Source: Escherichia coli (lineage in GTDB: Bacteria; Pseudomonadota; Gammaproteobacteria; Enterobacterales; Enterobacteriaceae). Taken from it: a stretch of 64,000 nt of DNA. The position numbers were made by a program. The stretch lies in the NCBI RefSeq assembly GCF_048403405.1, contig NZ_CP183129.1; one strand, given 5' to 3'. Positions 13,101 through 16,100 of the stretch are shown here, one piece after another (the stretch's first letter is position 1; each line of letters starts with the position of its first letter).

Positions 13101-16100
13101 TATCACATAATAGTACTAAGTCTGAATTTTCCGGGTTATCTCAAAATGGAATACGGTTCGACAAAGATGGAAGAGAGACTCTCTCGCAGCCCTGGTGGCA
13201 AACTGGCTTTGTGGGCTTTCTATACATGGTGTGGCTATTTCGTCTGGGCAATGGCGCGTTACATCTGGGTGATGAGCCGGATCCCCGATGCCCCCGTGTC
13301 GGGATTTGAAAGCGATTTAGGCTCTACCGCGGGAAAGTGGTTAGGGGCACTGGTCGGATTTTTATTTATGGCTCTGGTCGGGGCATTGTTAGGCAGCATT
13401 GCCTGGTACACCCGACCTCGTCCCGCACGTAGCAGACGCTATGAATAAAAACTGCTAAGGTGGCGACTCTTTGGCAACGGAGCGCGTATGGACTTACAAC
13501 ACTGGCAGGCAGAGTTCGAAAACTGGTTGAAAAACCATCATCAGCACCAGGACGCGGCCCATGACGTGTGTCATTTTCGCCGCGTCTGGGCTACGGCACA
13601 GAAGCTGGCGGCAGATGATGACGTCGATATGCTGGTGATTTTAACCGCCTGTTATTTTCACGATATTGTGAGCCTGGCGAAAAATCATCCGCAACGGCAG
13701 CGTTCTTCAATCCTGGCGGCAGAAGAGACGCGTCGCCTGCTCCGTGAAGAGTTCGTGCAATTTCCGGCGGAGAAAATTGAGGCCGTTTGTCATGCCATTG
13801 CCGCTCACAGTTTCAGCGCGCAAATCGCCCCCTTAACAACGGAAGCTAAAATCGTCCAGGATGCGGATCGGCTGGAAGCCCTGGGGGCGATTGGCCTGGC
13901 GCGCGTGTTTGCCGTTTCAGGGGCATTGGGCGTGGCGCTGTTTGATGGCGAAGATCCGTTCGCACAGCATCGCCCGCTTGATGATAAACGCTACGCGCTG
14001 GATCATTTCCAGACAAAGTTACTGAAATTACCGCAAACCATGCAAACCGCAAGAGGCAAGCAGCTGGCGCAGCACAACGCGCAATTTTTAGTCGAGTTTA
14101 TGGCGAAGCTCAGTGCCGAACTGGCGGGGGAGAATGAAGGTGTCGATCACAAGGTGATAGATGCGTTTTCACCCGCGGGCTGAGCGCGTGGCCCTAAATG
14201 GCTGTAATTATGTTAACCTGTCGGCCATCTCAGATGGCCGGTTAAATCTATGCAGGAAAATATATCAGTAACCGATTCATACAGCACCGGGAATGCCGTT
14301 CAGGCAATGCTGGAGAAACTGCTGCAAATTTATGATGTTAAAACGCTGGTGGCGCAGCTTAATGGTGTGGGTGAGAATCACTGGAGCGCGGCAATTTTAA
14401 AACGTGCACTGGCGAATGACTCGGCATGGCACCGTTTAAGTGAGAAAGAGTTCGCCCATCTGCAAACGTTGTTACCCAAACCACCGGCACATCATCCGCA
14501 TTATGCGTTTCGCTTTATCGATCTATTTGCCGGAATTGGCGGCATCCGTCGCGGTTTTGAATCGATTGGTGGACAGTGCGTGTTTACCAGCGAATGGAAC
14601 AAACATGCGGTACGCACTTATAAAGCCAATCATTATTGCGACCCGGCGACGCATCATTTTAATGAAGATATCCGCGACATCACCCTCAGCCATCAAGAAG
14701 GCGTGAGTGATGAGGCGGCGGCGGAACATATTCGTCAACACATTCCTGAACACGATGTATTACTGGCCGGTTTTCCTTGTCAGCCATTTTCGCTGGCTGG
14801 CGTATCGAAAAAGAACTCGCTCGGGCGGGCGCACGGTTTTGCCTGCGATACCCAGGGCACGCTGTTCTTTGATGTGGTGCGCATTATCGACGCGCGTCGT
14901 CCGGCGATGTTTGTGCTCGAAAACGTCAAAAACCTGAAAAGTCACGACCAGGGTAAAACGTTCCGCATCATCATGCAGACGCTGGACGAACTGGGCTATG
15001 ACGTGGCTGATGCAGAAGATAACGGGCCGGACGATCCGAAAATCATCGATGGCAAACATTTCCTGCCGCAGCACCGTGAACGCATCGTGCTGGTGGGTTT
15101 TCGTCGCGATCTGAATCTGAAAGCCGATTTTACCCTGCGTGATATCAGTGAATGTTTCCCTGCGCAGCGAGTGACGCTGGCCCAGCTGCTGGACCCGATG
15201 GTCGAGGCGAAATATATCCTGACGCCGGTGCTGTGGAAGTACCTCTATCGTTATGCGAAAAAACATCAGGCGCGCGGTAATGGCTTCGGTTATGGAATGG
15301 TTTATCCGAACAATCCGCAAAGCGTCACGCGTACGCTGTCTGCGCGTTATTACAAAGATGGCGCGGAAATTTTAATCGATCGCGGCTGGGATATGGCCAC
15401 GGGTGAAAAAGACTTTGACGATCCGCTGAATCAGCAACATCGTCCACGTCGGTTAACGCCTCGGGAATGCGCGCGCTTAATGGGTTTTGAAGCGCCGGGA
15501 GAAGCGAAATTCCGCATTCCGGTTTCGGACACTCAGGCTTATCGCCAGTTCGGTAACTCGGTGGTCGTGCCGGTCTTTGCCGCGGTGGCAAAACTGCTTG
15601 AGCCAAAAATCAAACAGGCGGTGGCGTTGCGTCAGCAAGAGGCACAACATGGTCGACGTTCACGATAAGGCCACCCGCAGCAAAAATATGCGCGCGATTG
15701 CCACGCGTGATACGGCGATTGAGAAGCGCCTCGCCAGTTTGTTAACTGGGCAGGGCCTTGCGTTTCGCGTTCAGGACGCCAGTCTGCCCGGACGCCCGGA
15801 TTTTGCCGTTGATGAATATCGCTGCGTGATATTTACCCATGGCTGCTTCTGGCATCATCATCACTGCTATCTGTTTAAAGTGCCTGCGACTCGAACCGAG
15901 TTCTGGCTGGAGAAGATAGGTAAAAATGTTGAGCGCGATCGCCGCGATATCAGTCGCTTGCAGGAACTCGGCTGGCGCGTATTGATTGTCTGGGAGTGCG
16001 CGTTACGTGGGCGCGAGAAGCTGACGGATGAAGCGCTTACCGAGCGTCTGGAAGAGTGGATCTGCGGCGAAGGTGCCAGCGCGCAGATCGACACGCAGGG

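Follow-up and report, generated by a model that had tools for sequence, protein, structure and literature searches.

In Escherichia coli K-12, Dcm methylates the second C of CCWGG (PMC4924334, PMC4444293), and the Vsr endonuclease repairs the T:G mismatches that arise when the 5-methylcytosine made by Dcm is deaminated (PMC2715241, PMC4924334). Vsr acts on T:G mismatches in a CTWGG/CCWGG context, where it nicks on the 5' side of the T (PMC2715241). The two genes are co-transcribed as one operon in K-12 (PMC4924334, PMC12907096), and dcm partially overlaps vsr (PMC4444293). According to PMC4444293, which cites Dar & Bhagwat 1993 on this point, vsr activity in K-12 is lost as well when dcm carries the nonsense mutation dcm-6 at codon 45.

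The window, that is, the whole stretch of 64,000 nucleotides of E. coli DNA that was analysed, carries a normal copy of the chromosomal E. coli dcm-vsr operon with a common allele. The features of the locus, each with its source in brackets, are as follows.

14250 to 15668, plus strand: dcm, DNA-cytosine (C5) methyltransferase, 472 aa, with the stop codon TAA at 15666-15668 (ORF list, profile matches, RefSeq annotation).
15637 to 15642, plus strand: Shine-Dalgarno-like AAGAGG within dcm, 6 nt upstream of the vsr ATG (read from the sequence).
15649 to 15668, plus strand: dcm/vsr overlap, ATGGTCGACGTTCACGATAA, 20 nt, with vsr in the +1 frame (sequence, ORF list, translation).
15649 to 16119, plus strand: vsr, very-short-patch repair T:G mismatch endonuclease, 156 aa, with the ATG at 15649-15651 (ORF, translation, profile and structure matches).
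15653, plus strand: C to T, the sole substitution within the overlap relative to K-12 (pairwise comparison).
16108 to 16119, shared by both strands: tail-to-tail overlap of 12 nt between the 3' end of vsr (plus) and the 3' end of the convergent yedA (minus, 16108 to 17028) (ORF list, annotation).

Taken as a whole, the locus is almost certainly the chromosomal dcm-vsr operon of E. coli, and no observation speaks against this identification. As in K-12, the genes are most likely co-transcribed, with vsr translation dependent on that of dcm. The genes lie on the same strand, and the vsr start codon falls within the 3' end of dcm; the offset between the two starts, (15649-14250) mod 3, equals 1, so the frames differ. 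Consequently, the overlap encodes the last six dcm codons and the stop (..GRRSR*) in one frame and vsr codons 1-6 plus two bases (MVDVHD) in the other. This is an ordinary, long-known E. coli arrangement, and there is nothing new in it. A preliminary description of this DNA had reported a 20-nt overlap in different frames, had recognized the vsr ATG within the dcm 3' end as the known arrangement, and had read the Vsr N-terminus as MVDVHD; the sequence and ORF list (15649 to 15668, +1 frame), the RefSeq annotation of both strain Ecol_881 and K-12 MG1655 (the same 20-nt overlap) and the translation (K-12 has MADVHD) agree with these three readings. Its further statement, that the arrangement couples methylation with T:G repair, matches the literature for K-12; for the window strain, we infer the coupling from the K-12 geometry, to which the gene geometry here is identical.

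The assignment of the upstream gene is secure. Dcm matches the Pfam models PF00145 (DNA_methylase, 259.9 bits) and PF18284 (DNA_meth_N, 72.1 bits), TIGR00675 (350.9 bits) and NF007772, the NCBIfam model for the Dcm subfamily (951.1 bits, cut-off 710, residues 1-469), and both the family model (PF00145) and the subfamily model (NF007772) are above their cut-offs over the full length, which identifies a Dcm-type C5 methyltransferase. Only 2 of the 472 residues differ from K-12 Dcm (A17V and K149Q), and methylation of CCWGG by this enzyme is predicted. The Pfam methylase domain stops at residue 448, so that the overlapped codons, 467-472, lie beyond the domain end; judged from the sequence, these last six codons look like a tolerated tail. 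In the spacer between yedJ and dcm, positions 14222 to 14240 form a perfect 8-bp hairpin, CGGCCATC-TCA-GATGGCCG, whose end is 9 nt ahead of the dcm ATG (14250); this ATG itself has no obvious Shine-Dalgarno sequence. Together with its flanking pairs, this hairpin folds at -18.2 kcal/mol; it is the same in K-12 and partly retained in Salmonella, and it could be the end of the yedJ transcript or a regulator of dcm translation.

The vsr product is identified with similar clarity. It scores above the curated cut-offs of the family of VSPR DNA mismatch endonucleases, with 131.8 bits for Pfam Vsr (PF03852; cut-off 27, aligned from residue 3) and 180.1 bits for TIGR00632 (cut-off 97.85, residues 1-118 aligned), and the structures solved for E. 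coli Vsr, 1CW0, 1VSR and 1ODG, match it with E values of 1e-105 to 1e-91 (1CW0, 1.6e-105, aligned from residue 3). Outside positions 2 and 53 (A2V and V53A), the protein is unchanged from K-12 Vsr. The unchanged positions include Asp51, His64, Cys66, Phe67, Trp68, His69, His71, Cys73, Trp86 and Cys117, whose roles we presume to be those given in the literature on the 1CW0 structure. On the strength of this near-identity, nicking of T:G mismatches by the window Vsr is predicted.

By aligning the 1870 nt of dcm-vsr with K-12, the check that the preliminary description had named, we obtained an ungapped match with 37 substitutions and no indels (98.0% identity) and an identical overlap geometry. 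The K-12 locus (b1961/b1960) has the same gene order, strand relation, 20-nt overlap and +1 frame, and its flanks are also those of the window: drpB and yedJ upstream, and the convergent yedA with its 12-nt overlap downstream, followed by yedI, yodC and dgcQ. The 12-nt tail overlap of vsr and yedA is likewise annotated in both K-12 and Salmonella. The differences from K-12 are allelic only, namely A17V and K149Q in Dcm and A2V and V53A in Vsr. In the RefSeq annotation of MG1655, vsr occupies 2030448 to 2030918 and dcm 2030899 to 2032317; in Ecol_881, which is 100% identical at dcm-vsr, dcm lies at 3001 to 4419 and vsr at 4400 to 4870 in locus coordinates, and the overlap is 20 nt in each case.

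Of 5426 complete E. coli genomes, 5367 have the 1870-nt segment, at least 30 of them with a sequence 100% identical to that of the window. With the query 14250 to 16119, the remaining 59 genomes gave no match, and a further 9 matched over under 80% of its length; in one of these, strain CM13, the match was confined to the final 28%, which comprises vsr and the 3' end of dcm. Two matches sit on records labelled as plasmids.

On a larger scale, the window is collinear with Ecol_881, its closest complete genome, from 3888 to 54798 at 99.74% identity. The collinearity breaks at tRNA-Ser(cga) (3860 to 3949) and tRNA-Leu(taa) (54638 to 54724), which leaves 1 to 3888 and 54798 to 64000 outside. The break sites are occupied in Ecol_881 by prophage tail-fibre genes and by an IS3 together with a type I restriction-modification island; the window content there is different, and both sites look like typical tRNA-associated island insertion sites. 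Between fliE and yedL, in the flagellar region, the annotation of Ecol_881 gives a fragment of an integrase gene and a DUF5503 pseudogene with a frameshift; the collinear blocks of the window, at 33893 to 35331, are nearly 100% identical to that genome, in which the lesions are annotated. Two small RNAs were also found above the Rfam gathering score and in their expected K-12 neighbourhoods, namely DsrA at 21254 to 21340 on the plus strand (102.5 bits) and RseX at 12829 to 12918 on the minus strand (99 bits; rseX is annotated in K-12).

The single substitution within the overlap accounts for the N-terminus of Vsr. The C to T change at 15653 converts GGC to GGT in dcm, which is silent for Gly, and GCC to GTC in vsr, which replaces Ala2 with Val, and the window therefore reads MVDVHD where K-12 reads MADVHD. 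The exact 55-nt junction of the window (15620 to 15674, T form) was found in 1616 complete E. coli genomes and the K-12 form (C) of the same length in 3465, and the two together make up about 96% of the approximately 5300 E. coli genomes that have the junction. MVDVHD represents a natural allele that is common, rather than an oddity or an error. Since Salmonella and Klebsiella carry Ala (GCG) at this position, Val2 is the derived state; Val2 also occurs in distant Vsr homologues from a Pseudomonas syringae plasmid (MVDVVD) and from Sphingorhabdus (MVDIV). Deamination of a 5-methylcytosine at a Dcm site was considered as the origin of the substitution and is ruled out, as the context, GGCCGAC, holds no CCWGG. 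Within dcm-vsr, Dcm sites are found at 14852 and 14948 only.

Beyond E. coli, the comparison was based on a tblastn search of Vsr against a plasmid collection, which also caught enterobacterial chromosomal segments filed as plasmids. By this search, Vsr is 85% identical at the Salmonella enterica locus and 77% identical at the Klebsiella pneumoniae locus, and the annotated methylase/vsr overlap is exactly 20 nt in both. The start, the stop and the overlap length are as in the window, the Vsr N-terminus is conserved, and in Salmonella the neighbouring genes and the yedA tail overlap are there as well. On the other hand, the C-terminal tails of Dcm and the Shine-Dalgarno-like sequence before vsr differ from those of the window: the tail reads HGRRSR, DGGRSR or DGGCSR among the three genera, and AAGAGG as such is retained neither in Salmonella, which has AAGAGA, nor in Klebsiella. 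At the E. coli, Salmonella and Klebsiella junctions, Vsr residues 1-15 are invariant, and all nucleotide changes between genera in vsr codons 1-16 are synonymous for Vsr. An invariant Vsr N-terminus beside a varying Dcm tail implies that, of the two frames, that of Vsr is under constraint between genera.

More distant C5-methyltransferase-vsr pairs were found on plasmids of Pseudomonas syringae, Celeribacter, Rhizobium, Thauera, Sphingorhabdus and Marinobacter. In these pairs, vsr follows the methylase directly on the same strand with a stop/start overlap of 1, 4 or 8 nt; Vsr starts with a MADV- or MVDV-type sequence and is 38-48% identical. Because these distant pairs abut too, the tight start/stop overlap is a recurrent property of the methylase-vsr pairs sampled; the 20-nt form was seen in enterobacterial loci only, among the pairs examined. 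The plasmid pairs belong to type II restriction-modification cassettes, in which a restriction endonuclease gene (in Thauera, an HNH endonuclease) comes after vsr; no such gene adjoins dcm in E. coli, where the methylase is solitary.

The existence of the overlap depends on where vsr begins, and if its start had been mis-called, with the next ATG, Met14 at 15688, as the true one, dcm and vsr would not overlap. An in-frame ATG is indeed present at codon 14, and the N-terminus is missing from the truncated proteins of the crystal structures 1VSR and 1ODG. However, Vsr residues 1-13 do not vary in Salmonella and Klebsiella, where the only changes are third-position ones that are synonymous for vsr, distant homologues begin MADV, MVDV or MADI at the same place, the TIGR00632 alignment begins at residue 1, and the 155-residue chain of 1CW0 spans residues 2-156. 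Furthermore, Vsr without its N-terminal 14 residues shows lower endonuclease activity, and MutL fails to stimulate it (PMC2715241). The conservation of residues 1-13, the TIGR00632 match from residue 1 and the solved full-length chain rule out a start at Met14, whose probability we regard as negligible. Since the family models and 1CW0 agree and the geometry is kept in Salmonella and Klebsiella, the ATG at 15649 is no chance ATG.

Given a true overlap, it may still be asked whether it is merely an evolutionary accident without a regulatory role, the Dcm frame running on to the first stop through a dispensable tail, and the translation of vsr starting independently on a shared mRNA, at a Shine-Dalgarno-like site of its own. 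Several observations fit this explanation: the overlapped Dcm codons lie past the end of the methylase domain, the tail codons vary between genera while the Vsr frame does not, the overlap length is not fixed among distant pairs (1, 4, 8 or 20 nt), and AAGAGG stands 6 nt upstream of the vsr ATG, where it may serve as the Shine-Dalgarno element of vsr and could permit some independent initiation. Nevertheless, an accident is unlikely. The loss of vsr activity caused by the codon 45 nonsense mutation dcm-6 in K-12 (PMC4444293, citing Dar & Bhagwat 1993) speaks against independent translation, the 20-nt geometry is kept in Salmonella and Klebsiella even though the Shine-Dalgarno-like hexamer is not, and start and stop overlap or abut in every methylase-vsr pair examined. 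We thus prefer the explanation in which the translation of vsr depends on that of dcm.

As for how such a dependence might operate, a structure that hides the vsr Shine-Dalgarno element or ATG was sought by RNA folding of 15590 to 15710, and the fold of this segment is no better than those of shuffled sequences (z = -1.13, with 27 of 200 shuffles reaching as good a fold). The minimum-free-energy hairpin at the junction leaves the vsr ATG in a loop. As the junction is no more stable than the shuffled controls, a model in which coupling works by the opening of a structure is unsupported by folding. A scan of 13400 to 16400 with the sigma-70 consensus gave no site, not even upstream of dcm, and for this reason the scan says nothing on an internal vsr promoter. 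In the same interval, 8 terminator-like matches were found inside coding sequence against 3.9 expected, which is near background. Counts of oligonucleotides over the window (163 CCWGG, 3 CTAGG/CCTAG and 31 CTTGG/CCAAG) are unusable as a footprint of VSP repair because the sample is small and CTAG is generally depleted.

It is conceivable that the derived A2V change, located at the translational junction, might measurably alter the amount or activity of Vsr, but we consider this very improbable, and nothing in the present analysis supports such a reading. If the change were effective, it would act through the efficiency of initiation or re-initiation, through removal of the initiator Met, or through the N-terminal segment that serves activity and MutL stimulation. 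About 30% of E. coli genomes would then differ from K-12-type strains in the rate of C to T mutation at Dcm sites, and even then the interest would be modest.

According to the preferred explanation, the placement of the vsr start 20 nt ahead of the dcm stop, in the +1 frame, would put both proteins on one mRNA. Ribosomes that finish dcm would traverse both the AAGAGG element and the vsr start, and it is through this passage that the synthesis of Vsr is proposed to be tied to the translation of dcm. With Vsr synthesis dependent in this way, a cell that produces the mutagenic methylase would also produce the matching repair enzyme. Deamination of the 5-methylcytosine made by Dcm, at the inner C of CCWGG, would give a T:G mismatch, which Vsr would nick 5' of the T, whereupon a short patch would be resynthesised and the C restored.

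Beyond its correct annotation, the locus has little significance of its own. The present analysis makes small additions, namely that the 20-nt geometry is fixed in Escherichia, Salmonella and Klebsiella, that between genera it is the Vsr frame of the overlap that is constrained, and that MVDVHD is a common allele. In general, overlapping dcm and vsr are a standard illustration of how a mutagenic enzyme of DNA modification can share an operon with the enzyme that repairs its damage.
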